Shown here: in pieces, positions 4,167 to 29,333 of the stretch
Layout of the letters: each line of letters opens with the position of its first letter
Position numbering within the stretch: position 1 is the stretch's first letter
Virus genome (UHGV): UHGV-0163337
Direction: 5' to 3' (one strand)
Source of the DNA: a virus
DNA: 34,745 nt
Notes under the pieces: generated by a model
Databases searched by the model: none
Told to the model about the DNA's origin: nothing
The model's input: only the letters and a program-made list of their open reading frames with translations
Program-made: the position numbers and the translations under genes

Positions 4167-6432
4167 AGCCTCCGGGCGTTTTGTCCCTCCGTCAGCATTT
4201 GCCGCAGGCACCGGTAAGACGTTTACCGGTGCTTATGCATGGAACGCGCCACGCGAGGCTGTCGGGCGCGAAAGACCCCTTACACGTGACGAGATGCGTC
4301 AGGTGCAAGGTGTTTTATCCACGATAAATCGCCTGCCTTATTTTTTGCGCTCGCTGTTTACTTCACGCTATGACTACATCCGGCGCAATAAAAGCCCGGT
4401 GCACGGGTTTTATTTCCTCACATCCACTTTTCAGCGTCGTTTATGGCCGCGTATTGAGCGTGTGAATCAGCGCCATGAAATGAACACCGACGCGTCGTTG
4501 CTGTTTCTGGCAGAGCGTGACCACTATGCACGCCTGCCGGGAATGAATGACAAGGAGCTGAAAAAGTTTGCCGCCCGTATCTCATCGCAGCTTTTCATGA
4601 TGTATGAGGAACTCTGCGATGCCTGGGTGGATGCGCATGGCGAAAAAGAATCGCTGTTTACGGATGAGGCGCAGGCTCACCTGTATGGTCATGTTGCTGG
4701 CGCTGCACGTGCTTTCAATATTTCCCCTCTCTACTGGAAAAAATACCGTAAAGGGGAGATGACCACGAGGCAGGCATATTCTGCCATTGCCCGTCTGTTT
4801 AACGATGAGTGGTGGACTCATCAGCTTAAAGGCCAGCGTATGCGTTGGCATGAGGCGTTACTGATTGCTGTCGGGGAGGTAAATAAAGACCGTTCACCTT
4901 ATGCCAGTAAACATGCTATTCGTGATGTGCGTGCGCGCCGCCAGGCAAATCTGGAATTTCTTAAATCGTGTGACCTTGAAAACAGGGAAACCGGCGAACG
5001 CATCGACCTTATCAGTAAGGTGATGGGCAGTATTTCTAATCCAGAAATTCGCCGGATGGAGCTGATGAACACCATCGCCGGAATTGAGCGTTACGCCGCC
5101 GCAGAGGGTGATGTGGGGATGTTTATCACGCTGACCGCGCCGTCAAAGTATCACCCGACACGTCAGGTCGGAAAAGGCGAAAGTAAAACCGTCCAGCTTA
5201 ATCACGGCTGGAACCATGAGGCATTTAATCCAAAGGATGCGCAGCGTTATCTCTGCCGTATCTGGAGCCTGATGCGCACGGCATTCAAGGATAATGATTT
5301 ACAGGCCTACGGTTTGCGTGTCGTTGAGCCACACCACGACGGAACGCCGCACTGGCATATGATGCTTTTTTGTAATCCACGCCAGCGTAACCAGATTATT
5401 GAAATCATGCGTCGCTATGCGCTTAAAGAGGATGGCGACGAAAGAGGAGCCGCGCGAAACCGTTTTCAGGCAAAACACCTTAACCGGGGCGGTGCTGCGG
5501 GGTATATCGCGAAATACATCTCAAAAAACATCGATGGCTATGCACTGGATGGTCAGCTCGATAACGATACCGGCAGACCGCTGAAAGACACTGCTGCGGC
5601 TGTTACCGCATGGGCGTCAACGTGGCGCATCCCACAATTTAAAACGGTTGGTCTGCCGACAATGGGGGCTTACCGTGAACTACGCAAATTGCCTCGCGGC
5701 GTCAGCATTGCTGATGAGTTTGACGAGCGCGTCGAGGCTGCACGCGCCGCCGCAGACAGTGGTGATTTTGCGTTGTATATCAGCGCGCAGGGTGGGCCAA
5801 ATGTCCCGCGCGATTGTCAGACTGTCAGGGTCGCCCGTAGTCCGTCGGATGAAGTTAACGAGTACGAGGAAGAAGTCGAGAGAGTGGTCGGCATTTACGC
5901 GCCGCATCTCGGCGCGCGTCATATTCATATCACCAGAACGACGGACTGGCGCATTGTGCCGAAAGTTCCGGTCGTTGAGCCTTTGACTTTAAAAAGCGGC
6001 ATCGCCGCGCCTCGGAGTCCTGTCAATAACTGTGGAAAGCTCACCGGTGGTGATACTTCGTTACCGGCTCCCACACCTTCTGAGCACGCCGCAGCAGTGC
6101 TTAATCTGGTTGATGACGGTGTTATTGAATGGAATGAACCGGAGGTCGTGAGGGCGCTCAGAGGCGCATTAAAATACGACCTGAGAACGCCAAACCGTCA
6201 GCAAAGAAACGGAAGCCCGTTAAAACCGCATGAAATTGCACCATCGGCCAGACTGACCAGGTCTGAACGATTGCAAATCACCCGTATCCGCGTTGACCTT
6301 GCTCAGAACGGTATCAGGCCGCAGCGATGGGAGCTTGAGGCGCTGGCGCGTGGAGCGACCGTAAATTATGACGGGAAAAAATTCACGTATCCGGTCGCTG
6401 ATGAGTGGCCGGGATTCTCGTTACCCATTTGA
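4156..6432 (+). CDS. A: replication initiation endonuclease A (rolling-circle HUH Rep)
   Basis: ~758 aa from ATG 4156 (ORF track starts at TTG 4114); HUH motif PHWHMMLF and active-site tyrosine motif YIAKYISK; P2 gpA ~761 aa. Confidence 0.93.
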   Translation: MDVKASGRFVPPSAFAAGTGKTFTGAYAWNAPREAVGRERPLTRDEMRQVQGVLSTINRLPYFLRSLFTSRYDYIRRNKSPVHGFYFLTSTFQRRLWPRIERVNQRHEMNTDASLLFLAERDHYARLPGMNDKELKKFAARISSQLFMMYEELCDAWVDAHGEKESLFTDEAQAHLYGHVAGAARAFNISPLYWKKYRKGEMTTRQAYSAIARLFNDEWWTHQLKGQRMRWHEALLIAVGEVNKDRSPYASKHAIRDVRARRQANLEFLKSCDLENRETGERIDLISKVMGSISNPEIRRMELMNTIAGIERYAAAEGDVGMFITLTAPSKYHPTRQVGKGESKTVQLNHGWNHEAFNPKDAQRYLCRIWSLMRTAFKDNDLQAYGLRVVEPHHDGTPHWHMMLFCNPRQRNQIIEIMRRYALKEDGDERGAARNRFQAKHLNRGGAAGYIAKYISKNIDGYALDGQLDNDTGRPLKDTAAAVTAWASTWRIPQFKTVGLPTMGAYRELRKLPRGVSIADEFDERVEAARAAADSGDFALYISAQGGPNVPRDCQTVRVARSPSDEVNEYEEEVERVVGIYAPHLGARHIHITRTTDWRIVPKVPVVEPLTLKSGIAAPRSPVNNCGKLTGGDTSLPAPTPSEHAAAVLNLVDDGVIEWNEPEVVRALRGALKYDLRTPNRQQRNGSPLKPHEIAPSARLTRSERLQITRIRVDLAQNGIRPQRWELEALARGATVNYDGKKFTYPVADEWPGFSLPI

Positions 6433-6648
6433 GTAAAAACACAACGTGATTTGATATGGCATTGAATGGCTTATGCGGAGCAGTTATGGGGCAGCAGAAG
6501 GTCAATAGCATGCTGAATTAGAAGGCTAAATGCTATTGAGTGACTAGCATGTCGGTAAGGACGGCCGTTTGATCCGGGTCATAAAAGGCCATCCATTTAG
6601 TCTAATAAAATCATTGCGGGTAACCTTATGTCGACGCATAATTCGTCT

Positions 6649-6722
6649 TGAGCGAAGTCTTGTCAGTCTTTCATCGTATTGATGATGGGCGCAAAAAAAC
6701 CACCCTGGCAGGTGGTTTTTTT
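6649..6722 (+). ncRNA. candidate small RNA (promoter to terminator, no ORF)
   Basis: TTGCGG (6614-6619), 17-nt spacer, CATAAT (6637-6642); ~74 nt to the intrinsic terminator; 5' end carries the 15-nt TTGAGCGAAGTCTTG (6648-6662) repeated at 6912-6926. Confidence 0.35.
6693..6722. terminator. bidirectional intrinsic terminator
   Basis: A7-CCACC-ctggca-GGTGG-T7: GC stem flanked by A-run and T-run, so hairpin plus U-tract on either strand. Confidence 0.8.
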
Positions 6723-6734
6723 GTTTGAAGCATA

Positions 6735-6848
6735 TTAAAGCATAATGCTGACATTGATATTACTGACGTTTACTGACAAACCACTCGGACTACCGTTTGG
6801 ATAGCCAAAGAGGGCCAGAACGAGAATGCAGTAATAGCATTTCTTCAT
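6735..6848 (-). CDS. small hydrophobic peptide (37 aa), candidate type I toxin-like
   Basis: ATG at 6848 with AGGAGG SD 4 nt upstream; MKKCYYCILVLALFGYPNGSPSGLSVNVSNINVSIML; ends 13 nt before the bidirectional terminator; AT-rich. Confidence 0.4.
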   Translation of the reverse strand: MKKCYYCILVLALFGYPNGSPSGLSVNVSNINVSIML

Positions 6849-7326
6849 ATTGCCTCCTGTAAGTAGAGGGCAACTTCCACCGGTATATGCGCTTCTTAGG
6901 TGGAATGACTTTTGAGCGAAGTCTTGCCCTGAAATAATGCTCTGTTTAAACGCAAAGTGATTTGGCATATCACCGAACAGAGAGCCGGAAAAACACAACA
7001 TATAGTATGTCGTTGTTTCTAGACATACATTCTATGTTGTGTAACAAGGGCTTTGCATTAAACATGTTTGAGATTTTATTGATGTAGCTCAAAGTAAAAA
7101 ACAGAGACTACGGATGATAAGGTCTTGAAAGCAATGTAAATTTTTTAAAGTTGCCAATTGCTTAAAAATGTACAGTTGCGGTATGGCGTACTTAAAAAGC
7201 TATGCATGCAACAAGTGAATGTTTTTGCATGCGTTGGGGATGTCCGTTCAGGCTGCGTGCGGTCAGGACTGGTGCGGATCCATAGTATCTATGCAACTGC
7301 ATTAAAACCGCCCCGTGAAGCGGGCG

Positions 7327-7499: not shown

Positions 7500-7660
7500 G
7501 GACCTATCAGCGAGGCCCCACCGTCGTCAACTACGATGGTGCCGTAGCCGACGACATTACGTACGGTCGAAAGATAGCAGAGGCTGTTGCTGGCAATTGT
7601 TGATGTAAGCATCTCTGCTGTTCCACCCTTGAGTATGGGAAGACCGTACGTAACTTTGAA
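7500..7660 (+). ncRNA. candidate structured leader / retron msr-msd-like ncRNA upstream of RT
   Basis: Hairpin 7523-7555 (13-bp imperfect stem); nested inverted repeats TACGTACGGTC (7558-7568)/GACCGTACGTA (7642-7652) and AGCAGAG (7576-7582)/CTCTGCT (7613-7619); boundaries not determined. Confidence 0.3.
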
Positions 7661-8861
7661 TTTGAATGGTATGTTTATGGATAAATTTAAACCATACAGC
7701 AAATCCAATGCTCCTATCACAACACTTGAAAAGTTGTCAAAGGCTTTATCGATTTCTGTTGAAGAGCTTAAAGCTATTGCAGAACTACCATTAGATGAGA
7801 AATATACTCTAAAAGAAATTCCCAAAATTGACGGAAGCAAACGGATTGTCTACTCCCTGCATCCTAAAATGAGATTATTACAGAGTAGAATTAATAAACG
7901 TATTTTTAAGGAATTGGTTGTTTTTCCTTCATTTTTGTTTGGTTCAGTCCCCAGTAAAAATGATGTTTTAAATTCTAACGTCAAGCGTGACTATGTTTCA
8001 TGCGCAAAGGCTCATTGTGGAGCAAAAACAGTTCTCAAGGTGGATATAAGTAATTTTTTCGATAATATCCATAGAGATCTGGTTAGGAGCGTGTTTGAGG
8101 AGATATTGCATATTAAGGATGAGGCTCTTGAATACTTGGTGGATATATGTACTAAGGATGATTTTGTCGTACAGGGGGCCTTAACATCAAGCTATATAGC
8201 AACTTTGTGTTTATTCGCTGTTGAAGGGGATGTGGTAAGACGTGCGCAGAGGAAAGGACTTGTTTATACGCGTTTGGTAGATGATATTACCGTGTCATCT
8301 AAAATAAGTAATTATGATTTTTCTCAAATGCAAAGCCATATAGAGAGGATGCTTTCTGAGCATGACTTGCCGATAAATAAGCACAAAACTAAAATATTTC
8401 ACTGTTCATCTGAACCTATAAAAGTACATGGTTTAAGAGTTGACTATGACTCACCTCGACTACCATCCGATGAAGTCAAAAGAATCAGGGCATCTATACA
8501 TAATTTGAAATTACTGGCGGCAAAAAATAACACAAAAACAAGTGTTGCATACAGAAAAGAATTCAATAGATGTATGGGGAGAGTGAATAAGCTTGGCCGT
8601 GTTGGGCATGAAAAATATGAATCATTCAAGAAACAGTTGCAGGCAATAAAACCGATGCCATCTAAAAGAGATGTTGCTGTGATTGATGCAGCTATAAAAA
8701 GTTTAGAGTTGTCGTATTCGAAAGGTAATCAAAATAAACATTGGTATAAAAGAAAATATGATTTGACGAGATATAAGATGATTATTCTTACTCGCTCTGA
8801 ATCATTTAAAGAAAAACTGGAGTGTTTTAAATCTAGATTGGCATCTTTAAAACCATTATGA
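7635..8861 (+). CDS. retron-type reverse transcriptase
   Basis: RT catalytic box YTRLVDDITV; retron-like AKAH (NAxxH position), VDISNFFDN and KVHGL (VTG position); first ATG 7635; alternatives TTG 7587 or ATG 7671; AT-rich. Confidence 0.8.
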   Translation: MGRPYVTLNLNGMFMDKFKPYSKSNAPITTLEKLSKALSISVEELKAIAELPLDEKYTLKEIPKIDGSKRIVYSLHPKMRLLQSRINKRIFKELVVFPSFLFGSVPSKNDVLNSNVKRDYVSCAKAHCGAKTVLKVDISNFFDNIHRDLVRSVFEEILHIKDEALEYLVDICTKDDFVVQGALTSSYIATLCLFAVEGDVVRRAQRKGLVYTRLVDDITVSSKISNYDFSQMQSHIERMLSEHDLPINKHKTKIFHCSSEPIKVHGLRVDYDSPRLPSDEVKRIRASIHNLKLLAAKNNTKTSVAYRKEFNRCMGRVNKLGRVGHEKYESFKKQLQAIKPMPSKRDVAVIDAAIKSLELSYSKGNQNKHWYKRKYDLTRYKMIILTRSESFKEKLECFKSRLASLKPL

Positions 8862-9565
8862 ATGCAAATATTAGACTTCTCAAATATATTGTCGGTGTGT
8901 CGTCAGCTCTTTTTTTGATTTTTTCGCTAATTTCTCTTTTTGAAACTATTCAGAATGAAAAGCTATATGAGCGTGATATATGCTTCGATAGCCAGTGCTT
9001 AAAATTTTTTGCGGAAAAAACATCTGGTATAGTAATGTATTTTCAGGCGTTTGGATGGCTTATAACAACTTTTGTTACCGTTTTTGGTGTTATGATTGCT
9101 TTGATGACATATAACGCTGGAGTTAAAAATAATAATAATAGTAATTACACTAGTCATCTGACGATGTTTAGAGAATTTGCAAGTGCTGAGTTAACTAAAA
9201 GAAGTAGCATCTATCCAGAGAAAGTTAATTTTTTTAGATGGTATAGGGTTATGTTCCCTGAAGCGCAAGGCGGTGATATATCTGTTTCGAGAGATTATCT
9301 AGAAATAATATCTAGAATCAAATGTGTTATTGAGGAAGCCAATGCACATATTACAGAGGAAAGTAAAGACTATAAATATAAAACTCATCAGAGAAAAATG
9401 ATGGCTGTTTTGGATGAAATCGGTATATCGATTAGTAATGGGCCCAAAAATATTTTTATCGAGGTTGAGAGTCAAATTTTGGATTATATCGATACTATTA
9501 ATTTGTCATTTTGTCATTCCTCATCAGTGATAGAATTAAGTAGAGTAAAAAGGAAGTATATATAG
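8858..9565 (+). CDS. 2-TM membrane protein, putative effector partnered with the RT
   Basis: ATGA overlap with RT stop; 235 aa; hydrophobic helices ~10-28 and ~58-84, then ~150-aa soluble domain; AT-rich. Confidence 0.7.
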   Translation: MNANIRLLKYIVGVSSALFLIFSLISLFETIQNEKLYERDICFDSQCLKFFAEKTSGIVMYFQAFGWLITTFVTVFGVMIALMTYNAGVKNNNNSNYTSHLTMFREFASAELTKRSSIYPEKVNFFRWYRVMFPEAQGGDISVSRDYLEIISRIKCVIEEANAHITEESKDYKYKTHQRKMMAVLDEIGISISNGPKNIFIEVESQILDYIDTINLSFCHSSSVIELSRVKRKYI

Positions 9566-18844: not shown

Positions 18845-19630
18845 TTATGAGTGGTTTTTATTTGATGATTTGTATTCTACAACTTTTTTATTGGCGTAAA
18901 GGAATTTTGTATATGACAGAAGTATAACCAGACCTGAAGTGAAATAGACGAGGGATATTATTAATAATGTTTTTCTGTGGCTGTTATTATCTTTAATCTC
19001 CTGACTTAACCATTTGGAGTCCTCCTCGTTTAGCTGTAAGAGCTTATTGCAGGCGATTGCAGGAAGTGTGTCTGTTACAAAAGTGTTCTGCAGTCTCTTG
19101 CAATCGGCAATGCTAAAAGCTTTATAGAACTTATCTGTTTTATTGTCGGAGAACAAAAGAACCTTGTCATTATAAACATGGTACATCATATTTTTATATG
19201 GTATGGCTATGGCATCCTCTACTATGGCAGATTGCTCGTTGTGTATGCAACATGCGAAGGTAATATAAAGAATTCCGGCCAGGACTGCACTCATTGTTTT
19301 TGTGATGCATGGCGGTTCTGTTATGTCTCCCCAGAAGCGAGTAAGGAAAAAATCCGATGTTTTTAGTTTTCCATCAATCAACCCCTGCTGTATCATTTTC
19401 ACATCTTTGATGCCTGATACATTGATTCCGTTAATTATTTTAAATAGTTGAATGTCGCGCCACTCGCGGTCCAGTCTTTTTAATTTTTTATCTGAATATC
19501 CAAATTTGAAATAATGTGCAATAAGCCTCATAAGGTTACTTTTACCAAAGCTAAAAAATGCTAATACTACAAAGACCAAAAGATACAAGACGATTAGCTC
19601 CCACACATTAGTCACATTATAGCTGACCAT
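18845..19630 (-). CDS. AT-rich membrane protein of unknown function (cargo at P2 orf30 position)
   Basis: 261 aa; strong SD AAGGAGAG; hydrophobic segments at N-terminus, middle and C-terminus; opposite strand to flanking late genes; low GC. Confidence 0.65.
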   Translation of the reverse strand: MVSYNVTNVWELIVLYLLVFVVLAFFSFGKSNLMRLIAHYFKFGYSDKKLKRLDREWRDIQLFKIINGINVSGIKDVKMIQQGLIDGKLKTSDFFLTRFWGDITEPPCITKTMSAVLAGILYITFACCIHNEQSAIVEDAIAIPYKNMMYHVYNDKVLLFSDNKTDKFYKAFSIADCKRLQNTFVTDTLPAIACNKLLQLNEEDSKWLSQEIKDNNSHRKTLLIISLVYFTSGLVILLSYTKFLYANKKVVEYKSSNKNHS

Positions 19631-24899: not shown

Positions 24900-25427
24900 A
24901 TGCAGCATTTAAAAAATATTACGGCGGGTAATCCAAAAACGGTTGAACAATATCAATTGACAAAAGACTTTGATGTTGTCTGGTTTTTTTCAGAAGATGG
25001 TAAGAACTGGTACGAAGAACAAAAGTATTTTGCTGATGACACGCTAAAAATAGCGTACGACAAAGATAATATCATCCGCTATGTGGAAAAGGATGTGACA
25101 GCTATCAGACCGGATGGATTAAGTGTTGTTGAAGTGGCGGATATTACTGCTAACCGACGGGCGGACATTTCAGGGAACTGGATGTTTAAGGACGGTACAG
25201 TGATTAAACGCATTTATACGGCAGAGGAATTGCAGCAGCAGGCAGAAAACCGGAAAGCCAGACTTCTTGCAGATGCTGAATCCGTGATTTTGCCACTGGA
25301 GCGCGCTGTCAGGCTGAACATGGCAACAGATGAGGAGCGTAGCCGACTGGAAGCATGGGAACGCTACAGTGTTCTGGTCAGCCGTGTGGATCCTGCAAAT
25401 CCTGAATGGCCGGAAATGCCGCAATAA
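24900..25427 (+). CDS. G: tail fiber assembly chaperone G
   Basis: 175 aa, same as P2 gpG; immediately after H. Confidence 0.85.
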
Positions 25428-25462: not shown

Positions 25463-25502
25463 GGCACAGAGTAAAGCCTAATCTGACAGTCCGCTCTGTG
25501 CC
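25463..25502 (+). terminator. hairpin downstream of G (weak terminator candidate)
   Basis: 9-bp inverted repeat GGCACAGAG / CTCTGTGCC with 22-nt loop; no U-tract. Confidence 0.3.
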
Positions 25503-25606
25503 AGGAGCGGAAGTAGCTAACAGCTCTTAGTGTTGATTAATGAGGAGCAGGCCGCTATCGCTAATTCCGCTTGCTGATGTATGGTAAGTACTGATAACCT
25601 TGATTT

Positions 25607-26458
25607 ATGATACTTAGTTTATACATCATATTATGGATGATCATTATGTCGCGTAGCTTATACCCAACGACCTTGTTTCATTTTACTGAAAAGTTAGATA
25701 CCTTATTTGAGATACTTGACTCAAGTTATTTTCGAATTTCTTTCGCTAGAGAGTTTATACAAGGCCAGAGCACGAATAGAAATTTCGGTATACCGATGGT
25801 TTCATTTTGTGATATCAGGCTAACACAGCTTACCCAGCATACTGAAAGTTATGGCCATTATGGCATAGGATTATCAAAAGATTGGGCAAACGAAAATGGA
25901 CTTAATCCAGTAATTTACATGTCCAAGCACTCTTCTGTTTTTGATAATTATAATCTAGAGATTAGGCGTTTAAAAGCAGAAGTTAATAAGTTATTAAAGC
26001 ATTTGGACGAAATAAAATCTTCAGGAACAACATCTCAATTAACTAATGCAAAGCGGAAATATGACTCGGCGATTCTTAGTTACAAGAAAATTGTAGATCC
26101 TTTGCGATATATGAAAAATTACCAGGCAACTTTGAAACGACGCAATGGTCAGGAGAAACCTAACTATATTTTTGCAGATGAGAGGGAGTGGCGATTTGTT
26201 CCAGATATAGAAAAATCAATTGGAAAACCAGTGATCGCTGCTTCGAAAAATATATCAACTCAAGATGGCAAGAGAAAATATAACGAATATTATGATGATG
26301 ACAGGTTACCCTTTTCACATAAGGATATTAAATATGTCATTGTAGAGCATGAAAGTGATGTTGAAAAGATGATGGACTTTCTGCATATAAAGTATGGTTC
26401 AAAAAGTAGCTTGATTCCAAGGGTTCTCTCAACCGAATTGATAGCGAATGATATGTAA
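25607..26458 (+). CDS. AT-rich cargo protein of unknown function (possible Abi-like), P2 Z/fun position
   Basis: 283-aa ORF (alternative ATG 25646 would remove the hydrophobic N-terminal 13 aa); very low GC; no catalytic motif recognised by eye. Confidence 0.6.
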   Translation: MILSLYIILWMIIMSRSLYPTTLFHFTEKLDTLFEILDSSYFRISFAREFIQGQSTNRNFGIPMVSFCDIRLTQLTQHTESYGHYGIGLSKDWANENGLNPVIYMSKHSSVFDNYNLEIRRLKAEVNKLLKHLDEIKSSGTTSQLTNAKRKYDSAILSYKKIVDPLRYMKNYQATLKRRNGQEKPNYIFADEREWRFVPDIEKSIGKPVIAASKNISTQDGKRKYNEYYDDDRLPFSHKDIKYVIVEHESDVEKMMDFLHIKYGSKSSLIPRVLSTELIANDM

Positions 26459-26774
26459 TTTAAGCTCTGTTTTTGCCTAAATTATCTATGCAATGCTTCC
26501 TTTTTGATACTTCATCGTGCTCTTATTGTGTTTAACGCTAAAACTAACCTACTCCCCGTGTTTCACATAGACCGCTATTAGCAATGTCCGCTGCGTGCGA
26601 AGAGCGGACATTACTAACATAGTGCCCAGAAGCTTTAAGGGAAGTAAGTCAAGTCCAAAAGTGCGGTTAAAGTAATGCTAATCTTTCCATTGAATGAGTG
26701 GATTGAGTATTAGAATTACATCTCCATAGCTACTTAAGCGGATTATTTAAAATTTTAATTAAGAGGTTCTAATT

Positions 26775-27779
26775 ATGGATAGATTTGAAATAAAACTTAA
26801 TGAAATCAATGAAATTCTTTCAAAGAATCAATTGGGGCTTATCTATGATTTTATAAATGATAGAGATAATGGTCTCGTACTGCCGTTTTTTAGTAAATAC
26901 ATGGACTCTGTTCGAAAATTAGATCTGGATTTTTGCATTACAACCAACTCACATTTTCAATGCGGCATTATTTATGATGAAAAATTGATATTTATGTCTT
27001 ATGGCACATTTGATAGACTATGTAAGTTATCTGACTTGATTTTTCGGTCAGGGATGATAACAGGGAAAAGTACTAATTTAAACTTTTATGACTTGCATCT
27101 CGTTACTAATCCATTTGTTGGGTTTAACAATGAGACAAGAGAGGAAAGTGAGTCCGAATCACACTTATTTATGTTTATTCTTGATTGTCTAATGCTGTTT
27201 ATAGTTAGTCACGAAGTAGGCCATTTCATTAATAAACATGGCGACCGAGCAAAAAAGCAATCTATTGACACTATCTTTGATGATGTTTTAGGACATAAAA
27301 AAATCAATAGCGCAGAAATAATATCAAGCCACGCAAGAGAATTAGTTGCAGATGGTTTTGCTCTTAATATTGTAAAAAAACATGTACAGTCTGCATTTGA
27401 TCAGAAGGCATCTTATCTTAATAACTTGCTTGATTTTTATAGCAGCAAGGAAGGCGGAATTGCATTTTCATTGCTATTAATACTGTGCTACTTCAAACTT
27501 TCTGATGGCTTATCACCCCATGAACATTTTCAATCGACACATCCCTCAACGGCGGCACGAGTTCGATTTATTCTCAGTTGTCATATTGAATCATTAGTCA
27601 ATGAGGATGAAGAAAAAACTTTTGGATTTTACTATGGTTTAATCATAACTCAATTGAAATCAATATTTGCATCTATGGGAGATGACTTTGAGTTAACTTG
27701 GATAAAGGATACGAACTCACCTGAAATGACCGAGTGGTTTAATAATGTTTATAAAGAGCATCCAAAATGGTTAGCATAA
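26775..27779 (+). CDS. HExxH zinc-metallopeptidase-like protein (cargo), possibly Lit-like phage-exclusion protease
   Basis: 334 aa; AAGAGG SD 8 nt before ATG; HEVGH at residues 146-150 followed by ELVAD ~40 aa downstream; very low GC. Confidence 0.6.
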   Translation: MDRFEIKLNEINEILSKNQLGLIYDFINDRDNGLVLPFFSKYMDSVRKLDLDFCITTNSHFQCGIIYDEKLIFMSYGTFDRLCKLSDLIFRSGMITGKSTNLNFYDLHLVTNPFVGFNNETREESESESHLFMFILDCLMLFIVSHEVGHFINKHGDRAKKQSIDTIFDDVLGHKKINSAEIISSHARELVADGFALNIVKKHVQSAFDQKASYLNNLLDFYSSKEGGIAFSLLLILCYFKLSDGLSPHEHFQSTHPSTAARVRFILSCHIESLVNEDEEKTFGFYYGLIITQLKSIFASMGDDFELTWIKDTNSPEMTEWFNNVYKEHPKWLA

Positions 27780-28019
27780 TACCTCTTATATAATGCTGAT
27801 GGTATATTAATATTGAATTGATAATCCTGAATGTCGCTGACTTTAATAAAGCATTGAAATTAGAAAAAGTGAAGTTTTATAATGCTCTTTAATAATTCAT
27901 GTCACTCAACAGCGAAAAGCGTGAAGGTCTGCTCCTCGCTCAAAGCAGACTGTCAGAATTGATAGCGTTTGGGCTATGTAAATTGTCAGTCGGAAAATGA
28001 GTGAGTACAAATCAGGACA

Positions 28020-28046
28020 GGCGGGCGAATTGCCCGCCTTTTCTTT
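28020..28046 (+). terminator. intrinsic terminator closing the cargo island before FI
   Basis: GGCGGGC-gaatt-GCCCGCC stem-loop followed by TTTTCTTT. Confidence 0.8.
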
Positions 28047-28142: not shown

Positions 28143-29333
28143 ATGAGTGACTATCATCATGGCGTGCAGGTGCTGGAGATTAACGACGGCACCCGCGTCA
28201 TTTCCACCGTATCCACTGCCGTTGTCGGCATGGTCTGTACGGCCAGCGATGCGGATGCGGAAACCTTCCCCCTCAATAAACCTGTGCTGATTACCAATGT
28301 GCAGAGCGCAATTGCAAAGGCCGGTAAAAAAGGCACGCTGGCGGCATCGTTGCAGGCCATCGCCGACCAGTCAAAACCGGTCACCGTTGTCGTGCGTGTG
28401 GAAGACGGCACCGGCGACGACGAGGAAACGAAACTCGCGCAGACCGTTTCCAATATCATCGGCACCACCGACGAAAATGGTCAGTACACCGGACTGAAAG
28501 CCCTGCTGGCGGCAGAGTCGGTAACCGGCGTTAAACCGCGTATTCTCGGTGTGCCGGGACTGGACACCAAAGAGGTGGCTGTTGCACTGGCATCAGTCTG
28601 TCAGAAGCTGCGCGCTTTCGGGTATATCAGCGCATGGGGCTGTAAAACCATTTCCGAGGTGAAAGCCTACCGCCAGAATTTCAGCCAGCGTGAGCTGATG
28701 GTCATCTGGCCGGATTTCCTCGCATGGGATACGGTCGCCAGTACCACCGCCACCGCGTATGCCACTGCCCGTGCGCTGGGTCTGCGCGCTAAAATCGACC
28801 AGGAGCAGGGCTGGCATAAAACGCTGTCCAACGTCGGGGTGAACGGTGTTACCGGCATCAGCGCGTCCGTATTCTGGGATTTGCAGGAGTCCGGCACCGA
28901 TGCTGACCTGCTTAACGAGTCAGGCGTCACAACGCTGATTCGCCGTGACGGTTTCCGCTTCTGGGGTAACCGTACCTGCTCTGATGACCCGCTGTTCCTC
29001 TTTGAAAACTACACCCGCACCGCGCAGGTGCTGGCCGACACGATGGCTGAGGCGCACATGTGGGCGGTGGACAAGCCCATCACCGCAACGCTGATTCGCG
29101 ACATCGTTGACGGCATCAATGCCAAATTCCGTGAGCTGAAAACAAACGGCTATATCGTGGATGCGACCTGCGGGTTCAGCGAAGAATCCAACGATGCGGA
29201 AACCCTCAAGGCCGGAAAACTGTATATCGACTACGACTATACACCGGTGCCTCCTCTTGAAAACCTGACCCTGCGCCAGCGTATTACCGATAAATACCTG
29301 GCAAATCTGGTCACTTCGGTTAACAGCGATTAA
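28143..29333 (+). CDS. FI: tail sheath protein FI
   Basis: 396 aa, same as P2 gpFI; MSDYHHGVQVLEIN... Confidence 0.93.
   Translation: MSDYHHGVQVLEINDGTRVISTVSTAVVGMVCTASDADAETFPLNKPVLITNVQSAIAKAGKKGTLAASLQAIADQSKPVTVVVRVEDGTGDDEETKLAQTVSNIIGTTDENGQYTGLKALLAAESVTGVKPRILGVPGLDTKEVAVALASVCQKLRAFGYISAWGCKTISEVKAYRQNFSQRELMVIWPDFLAWDTVASTTATAYATARALGLRAKIDQEQGWHKTLSNVGVNGVTGISASVFWDLQESGTDADLLNESGVTTLIRRDGFRFWGNRTCSDDPLFLFENYTRTAQVLADTMAEAHMWAVDKPITATLIRDIVDGINAKFRELKTNGYIVDATCGFSEESNDAETLKAGKLYIDYDYTPVPPLENLTLRQRITDKYLANLVTSVNSD

Follow-up and report, generated by a model that had tools for sequence, protein, structure and literature searches.

A putative Lit-sister zinc protease in a cargo cassette of a P2-like prophage, a candidate anti-phage gene

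The Lit protein (MEROPS U49, PF10463) of the cryptic prophage e14 of Escherichia coli K-12 is one of the classic abortive-infection proteases and has so far been an isolated example. Lit excludes T-even phages: its latency ends with the appearance of the Gol peptide of T4 gp23, whereupon it cuts EF-Tu between Gly59 and Ile60 and translation stops. Two other groups of HExxH proteases invite comparison. The M48 enzymes (HtpX, BepA, LoiP, YcaL, Ste24; PDB 3c37) are housekeeping proteins encoded by conserved genes, those that have been characterised being membrane or periplasmic, and ImmA/IrrE (M78) and CapP are small cytoplasmic proteases found on mobile elements or in defence loci. A further abortive-infection system, AbiG of Lactococcus, needs two genes, AbiGi and AbiGii (PMC13064643).

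Here we describe a gene in a stretch of 34,745 nucleotides (the window; virus genome UHGV-0163337), a P2-like prophage that carries integrase, gpA, portal, tail fibre, G, FI and tape measure protein genes. The product is, like Lit, a prophage-borne protein of about 300 amino acids encoded by a single gene. We propose, with a probability of roughly 55%, that it is a Lit-sister zinc protease forming a self-sufficient mobile defence cassette, one that would be latent in the lysogen and cause abortive infection when triggered. The coordinates of the features discussed below are collected in Table 1.

Table 1. Features of the cargo island and its flanks, in coordinates of the window.
Feature	Position	Strand	Basis
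Tail-fibre assembly protein G	24900-25427	.	Pfam Caudo_TAP
End of Z-region 'left inverted repeat' with hairpin, left island boundary	25482-25524	.	Identity to P2-EC58 left inverted repeat stops at 25511; repeats D2, I1, I2
Whole low-GC cargo island, two cassettes, between G and FI	25512-27922	+	Backbone boundaries, GC profile
AbiGi-family cargo gene (probable true start 25646, 270 aa)	25607-26458	+	Pfam AbiGi 7e-31, PADLOC AbiGi 1e-41
Palindromic hairpin, 5' boundary of protease cassette	26578-26617	.	15+15 nt arms, 93% complementary; repeats I12, D2
Conserved 5' leader of protease gene	26618-26774	+	DNA alignment with E. mori and Pectobacteriaceae loci
Target ORF, Lit-like/M48-like predicted zinc metallopeptidase, 334 aa (stop included)	26775-27779	+	ORF listing
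HEVGH codons (H146, E147, H150)	27210-27224	+	Invariant in 47 homologues; aligns with Lit HEISH 160-164 and M48 HExxH
RELVAD codons (188-193)	27336-27353	+	E189 >=90% conserved, D193 invariant; aligns with Lit E181/D185 and HtpX REFHAD
STHPSTAAR codons (254-262), M48/Lit-type C-terminal (S/T)HPxxxxR	27534-27560	+	P257, R262 invariant; H256 >=90%
Conserved 3' cassette region, ending in P2 'right inverted repeat' hairpin (27928-27957)	27780-27957	+	DNA alignment with E. mori and Pectobacteriaceae loci
Sheath FI	28143-29333	.	Pfam Phage_sheath

Catalytic motifs and fold of the predicted protease

The ORF begins with ATG, 8 nt after a Shine-Dalgarno sequence (AAGAGG, 26761-26766). As the original prediction had claimed from the letters alone, the ORF listing and its translation give a protein with HEVGH at residues 146-150 and ELVAD downstream (residues 189-193). 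HEVGH, which lies within LFIVSHEVGHFINKH (141-155), is the only HExxH in the protein. By itself a single such motif is weak evidence, since 0.04 are expected from the composition of a protein like this one and all ORFs of the 35-kb window were in play, but the invariance of H146, E147 and H150 across homologues raises it above chance. These three residues and G149 are invariant in 27 homologues of 41-85% identity. In 47 homologues, with identities down to 18%, the invariant residues are, initiator Met aside, H146, E147, H150, D193, P257 and R262, while E189, H256 and H155 are conserved in at least 90%. The dN/dS against orthologues of 84-85% identity, from Enterobacter mori and from a Pectobacteriaceae genome, is 0.11-0.15. 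Based on this value and on the conservation among homologues, we conclude that the gene is genuine and evolves under purifying selection.

The set of motifs that characterises M48 proteases, an HExxH with a downstream E..AD and a (S/T)HPxxxxR, is present in full and conserved. HEVGH aligns with H160, E161 and H164 of Lit, which are invariant in the Lit family, and STHPxxxxR aligns with STHPLTSER of 3c37 and NTHPAAYER of Lit. By their place in the motif, H146 and H150 are the predicted zinc ligands and E147 the predicted catalytic base. In gluzincins the third zinc ligand is a downstream Glu, a role for which the original prediction had proposed ELVAD as a source. E189 indeed aligns with the Glu of the M48 E-x-x-A-D motif (REFHAD in HtpX) and with that of EEREAD in Lit, where E181 and D185 are both invariant across the family; this alignment, together with the established role of the gluzincin Glu, makes E189 the putative third ligand. 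We therefore predict with high confidence that the protein is an active metallopeptidase.

The AlphaFold2 model is confident and globular (pTM 0.90), has a metallopeptidase fold and resembles solved M48 enzymes in structure. A Foldseek search of the PDB with the model gave no match at E<=1e-3, and a profile search against PDB chains gave a marginal match to the M48 protein 3c37 (E 0.015); no Lit structure was among the PDB structure matches. A sequence search of PDB chains returned chance LRR matches only, which were discarded. The one match in a fold search of BFVD was an uncharacterised Myoviridae protein (E 1.6e-6).

The protein had been described as free of signal peptides and transmembrane segments. 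The first point holds, as no signal-peptide-like segment was found at the N terminus in a check of the sequence; the second is probable, short of proof. Two 19-residue Kyte-Doolittle windows exceed 1.6: residues 131-149 (1.89), which include D136, H146 and E147 and form the catalytic helix, and residues 228-246 (1.61), which form a core helix in the globular model. The model thus points to a protein that is probably soluble.

Two further segments, specific to the family and separate from the zinc motifs, carry residues conserved among the 27 closer homologues. In residues 92-125 (27048-27149), modelled as a long coil with moderate to good confidence, L107, H108 and P113 are invariant. In residues 155-186 (27237-27332), H155, G156, R158, D170 and H186 are invariant and D169 and H174 are conserved in at least 90%; residues 169-172 are the only region of the model with pLDDT below 50. 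We speculate that this coil and this His/Asp loop might be autoinhibitory, latency-control or trigger-sensing elements.

Placement relative to Lit and M48

A likeness to Lit had been suggested from the position of the motif. Curated models do not place the protein in the Lit family: it scores 22.1 bits (E 7e-5) against the NCBIfam model 'phage exclusion protein Lit' (PRK09672), whose cutoff is 274, and E 0.01 against the Lit model of PADLOC. The local Pfam U49 model (PF10463.15) did not match it and matched 1 of the 47 family members at E<0.01; in precomputed labels for PF10463.16, most members are 'weak' and three (P0018, P0019 and P0155) are strong (E<=1e-5). The only Pfam model above its cutoff is Peptidase_M48 (PF01435; 22.6 bits against a cutoff of 20.3, residues 141-266), which also matches 11 of the 47 members at E<0.01. 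M78/IrrE, another of the peptidase families to which the original prediction had looked, is matched by 3 of the 47 members.

Comparison of profiles gives a different picture, in which the suggested likeness is borne out. The profile of the target family (47 sequences) aligns with that of the Lit family (26 sequences, 31-74% identical to K-12 Lit) in hhalign with a probability of 93.7% (E 2e-7) over 200 columns (target 36-273, Lit 33-250), and with 96.0% in the reciprocal run. The alignment extends beyond the HExxH helix and spans the N-terminal beta-sheet region, and three column-shuffled Lit profiles reached at most 0.5%. A control M48 profile aligned with the target family at 81% over only the 62 columns of the catalytic core, and with Lit at 59%. 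The target family and Lit thus appear to be the closest pair among the three, although this ranking is not secure, the control being a shallow profile of four E. coli M48 paralogues.

The order of structural elements agrees with this pairing. In DSSP assignments of the AlphaFold2 models of the target and of Lit (pLDDT 89.0), compared by the order of their elements, these match one to one: both models open with a pair of N-terminal helices, a three-stranded sheet and a backing helix, a long coil leads on to the HExxH helix, and after it come the Glu helix, a core helix, the THP loop, the Arg helix and helices at the C terminus. HExxH, E..AD and (S/N)THPxxxxR are collinear in the two proteins, and HExxH begins at a similar position (146 in the target, 160 in Lit). 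Target and Lit alike have their catalytic helix set apart from the sheet by a long linker, which the E. coli M48 proteins lack (about 65 residues in the target, about 20 in the latter); from the backing helix to HExxH there are about 50 residues in the target and about 70 in Lit.

The differences from Lit are nevertheless substantial. Identity is about 15%, the target is about 35-45 residues longer, and it has additional conserved residues (H108, H155, D169/D170, H174, H186 and H251). The spacing from HExxH to the Glu has a median of 41 residues in the target family and is about 21 in Lit, and that from HExxH to THP has a median of 110 in the target family and is about 71 in Lit. Based on this divergence and on the misses of the NCBIfam, PADLOC and local U49 models, we rejected membership in the curated Lit family. 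It is fairly likely that the target family is a distinct sister group of Lit within the M48-like gluzincins, rather than a group of Lit orthologues.

ImmA/IrrE and CapP resemble the target in size, motif and occurrence, but it matches them (CapP, E 0.027 in PADLOC; M78/IrrE, the members counted above) much less well than it does Lit or M48. Unlike them, it has no adjacent HTH repressor of the ImmR, CapH or DdrO type in the settings examined, and a reading as an ImmA/IrrE- or CapP-like regulator was dropped for this reason.

The family is small and previously unnamed. It comprises 52 cluster representatives (E<=1e-3, out of 1.84 billion), mostly of about 300-360 aa; a profile search of a 5.8-billion protein set reached nothing outside it, and a search for related loci in genome contigs found at least one distant locus. 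RefSeq calls the protein 'M48 family metalloprotease' (E. coli O166:H15 JNE21-009), its PHROG (20713) is of 'unknown function', PADLOC-DB v2 has no significant match to it, and a literature search found no paper describing the family.

These labels, and the M48 model as the sole Pfam match above cutoff and one shared by other members, could be read as favouring a role outside defence: counter-defence, lysogenic conversion or host fitness, or a moron for protein quality control of the M48 type. We consider such a role unlikely. The target differs from M48 enzymes in having neither signal peptide nor membrane anchor and in aligning with them only in the catalytic core; its nearest profile neighbour is Lit, and it recurs beside defence genes. 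Moreover, the family is sporadic and tied to mobile elements, being found in one of 5,426 E. coli genomes (see below), a distribution that does not fit a housekeeping function.

The Z/fun cargo island and its two cassettes

The suggestion that the gene is cargo is confirmed by its surroundings. In an alignment with the annotated Z-region of P2-EC58, the P2 backbone stops at 25511 and restarts at 27923, and the 2.4 kb in between have a GC content of about 33-34%, in flanks of about 56%. By this alignment, the insertion site corresponds to the Z/fun locus of P2, which has been named as a P2 defence locus (PMC13586616). Residence in a hotspot is suggestive of a defence function, though hotspots also carry non-defence morons. 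Rousset 2022 deals with the cos-proximal hotspot and does not mention the target family, and according to an article in NAR 2026 a Lit homologue occurs in just one P2-like prophage, possibly at the present locus.

The island is rare. The G and FI flanks occur in 1,863 of 5,426 complete E. coli genomes and the full island in one, that of JNE21-009 (100% identity), where RefSeq annotates the upstream gene as 'abortive infection system antitoxin AbiGi family protein'. Searches with both cargo proteins (tblastn) found no match in 50,697 phage records and one distant match, from Rhizobium, among plasmids.

The prophage carries other low-GC insertions. A type IV retron pair (7587-8861 and 8858-9565, + strand; RT_IV E 8e-177, 2TM_IV E 5e-85) lies in a low-GC island between gpA and portal, the cos-proximal P2 defence hotspot; Rfam had no match there at its gathering threshold, and the msr/msd ncRNA was not located. 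A 261-aa ORF on the opposite strand among the tail genes (18845-19630, - strand), in a third low-GC patch (about 41%), matched nothing in Pfam or PADLOC and is possibly another moron.

The P2 Z-region repeat has its third copy in the hairpin upstream of the protease gene, which folds as DNA with -12.4 kcal/mol (z -3.5). The window has exactly two copies of TCCGCT-N10-AGCGGA, one ahead of each cargo gene, against a chance expectation of none. At the other end of the island, the right inverted repeat (27928-27957) pairs with 25482-25511 as inverted repeat I2 (83% complementary). In DNA alignments, conservation with the E. mori locus takes in the hairpin, as a degenerate copy upstream of the orthologue, about 190 bp of leader, and about 150-180 bp on the 3' side, among them the right hairpin; the Pectobacteriaceae locus shares the leader and the 3' region. 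A consensus promoter scan that required a spacer of 16-18 nt found no site on the + strand upstream of the ORF. The leader does contain TTGAAT (26690-26695) and TAGAAT (26711-26716), 15 nt apart, which we regard, given their conservation across genera, as a putative promoter-like element.

Related hairpins were noted at 25482-25524, 26578-26617 and 27928-27957 of the window and in two other contigs (L011, about 5800-5850; L014, 7210-7230). The Z/fun pattern is GTCCGCT-N10-AGCGGAC followed by a tail containing TAACA, and its right-hand partner is GGTCTGCT...AGCAGAC. These hairpins may be the 'left/right inverted repeats' annotated in the records of P2-EC58 and P2-EC67. The protease cassette, complete with hairpins, leader and 3' region, also occurs away from P2: E. 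mori carries it between chromosomal genes, and a Pectobacteriaceae genome in an integrase island. This recurrence suggests hairpin-mediated cassette exchange.

Just past the protease stop and directed towards the right inverted repeat there is a strong sigma-70-like site (27854-27883, + strand; TTGAAA-18-TATAAT, 11/12), and downstream of it an intrinsic-terminator-like hairpin (28019-28039), also strong, with a T-run (to 28045). Such a pair could delimit a transcript of about 150 nt. Neither the E. mori nor the Pectobacteriaceae copy preserves the -35 element, and Rfam searches of the island and of the window returned no RNA family.

The other gene of the island, annotated as 270 aa in GCA_026350555.1, belongs to the AbiGi family, as does one of the two genes of lactococcal AbiG. 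Its partner in that system, AbiGii, is absent from the locus according to PADLOC, and the protease is dissimilar to AbiGii, matching it in neither PADLOC nor Pfam. The AbiGi gene is an orphan in a hairpin-bounded cassette of its own.

Our first hypothesis was that AbiGi is the partner of the protease, the two making up one defence system in which the protease replaces AbiGii as effector or forms a toxin-antitoxin-like pair with AbiGi. The genes are adjacent, co-oriented and both low in GC, they occur together in all four other contigs with an identical protease (NZ_AP041814.1, L022, L023 and L034), and the lactococcal system requires a second gene, which is missing here. However, they are separated by 316 bp that hold the cassette-boundary palindrome, and the conserved leader and 3' region accompany the protease in E. 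mori and Pectobacteriaceae, where there is no AbiGi. Likewise, none of 13 other distinct settings of the family has an AbiGi-like flanking ORF, and a Vibrio homologue is a single-gene integron cassette. A joint system thus seems quite improbable, and we rejected AbiGi as a partner on genomic context. We judge the island to be two cassettes placed end to end, with AbiGi separate. The palindrome, the conserved flanks, the AbiGi-free settings and the varying neighbours all argue for the protease as an autonomous cassette, although strict single-gene autonomy may not hold in one clade discussed below.

Other settings of the family and proposed function

When the ORFs flanking the protease at 13 loci outside the window were clustered, the only recurrent neighbours were integrases and insertion-site genes. 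One setting is in Vibrio campbellii (L006, 1-13002), where 17 attC/VCR-like repeats of about 130 nt, 500-1350 bp apart, mark a chromosomal integron array. There the homologue (6001-7002) is the sole gene of its cassette, between two attC-like repeats, and RelE/MqsA, acetyltransferase and NUDIX cassettes are found nearby. A homologue in Vibrio parahaemolyticus lies in an apparently similar array.

Other homologues have phage-type surroundings. One is at the ogr-proximal end of another P2-like prophage; the Pantoea homologue adjoins genes for a P2-like integrase and CI, and the Providencia one genes for Ogr and HP1_ORF34; two more are in IMG/VR contigs, one with an adjacent P2-type integrase (L035) and one with no recognisable integrase (L036). 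Defence-type genes are found in several islands. In one integrase island the homologue is accompanied by RelE/MqsA and a complete HEC-01 system; that of V. fluvialis adjoins NA-iREase2, with RelA_SpoT; further islands hold a KAP NTPase and an AAA_13 ATPase, AlpA and a type I restriction-modification subunit, or an integrase or IS110 transposases. The E. mori orthologue lies between chromosomal genes.

In a clade of 62-66% identity (L002, L035 and L036), a gene resembling TIR effectors (PADLOC PDLC00733, E 2e-11; Pfam CAP12-PCTIR_TIR, E 2e-5) ends 40 bp upstream of the protease start, and the two could form a two-gene operon. The TIR-like genes are at 2162-2878 in L035, 4226-4960 in L036 and 5421-5960 in L002, and a P2-type integrase adjoins the pair in L002 and L035.

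The close spacing of this pair, the different defence-type genes directly upstream in two clades (AbiGi in E. coli, TIR-like in the Pantoea type) and the CapP and M78/IrrE matches are what would be expected of a modular accessory, that is, an activator, maturase or regulator which cleaves varied effectors or their inhibitors, yet this is the least probable of the readings considered, as at least six settings (L005, L006, L011, L014, L024 and L031) lack any adjacent gene in the same direction, an HTH or CapH-like partner was seen in none of the settings examined, and the protease alone in an integron cassette points to a stand-alone function. Cooperation with varied effectors is retained as a residual possibility.

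We thus favour the reading of the protease as a self-sufficient Lit-sister defence cassette. An anti-phage function of the family, which we infer from the homology to Lit and from genomic context, is somewhat better than an even prospect. A cassette consisting of a hairpin, its own leader, the ORF and a 3' hairpin would have landed in the Z/fun anti-phage hotspot beside an unrelated AbiGi cassette. The protease would be expressed from the lysogen and kept latent until, by analogy with Lit, a superinfecting phage makes a product that either activates it or generates its substrate. It would then cut either a host protein that is essential and might, as in the case of Lit, belong to the translation apparatus, or a phage protein, and this cleavage would abort the infection. 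EF-Tu itself is an improbable substrate. A more specific proposal, which we put forward tentatively and hold to be doubtful, is that the protein founds a single-gene abortive-infection family, sister to Lit, which responds to another phage trigger, cuts an essential substrate other than EF-Tu, and moves as a hairpin-bounded cassette between P2 Z/fun loci, chromosomal islands and, among its relatives, Vibrio integrons.

A prophage-borne single-gene suicide protease is already known as a kind from Lit. The cassette described here (about 1.4 kb) is a compact and clonable candidate defence gene that current annotation has missed. If our reading is correct, a sister family on P2-like phages, in an integron cassette and in defence islands would make protease-mediated suicide a broader defence strategy, and would provide a second system for protease latency, for the phage signals that end it and for the cellular targets of such enzymes.
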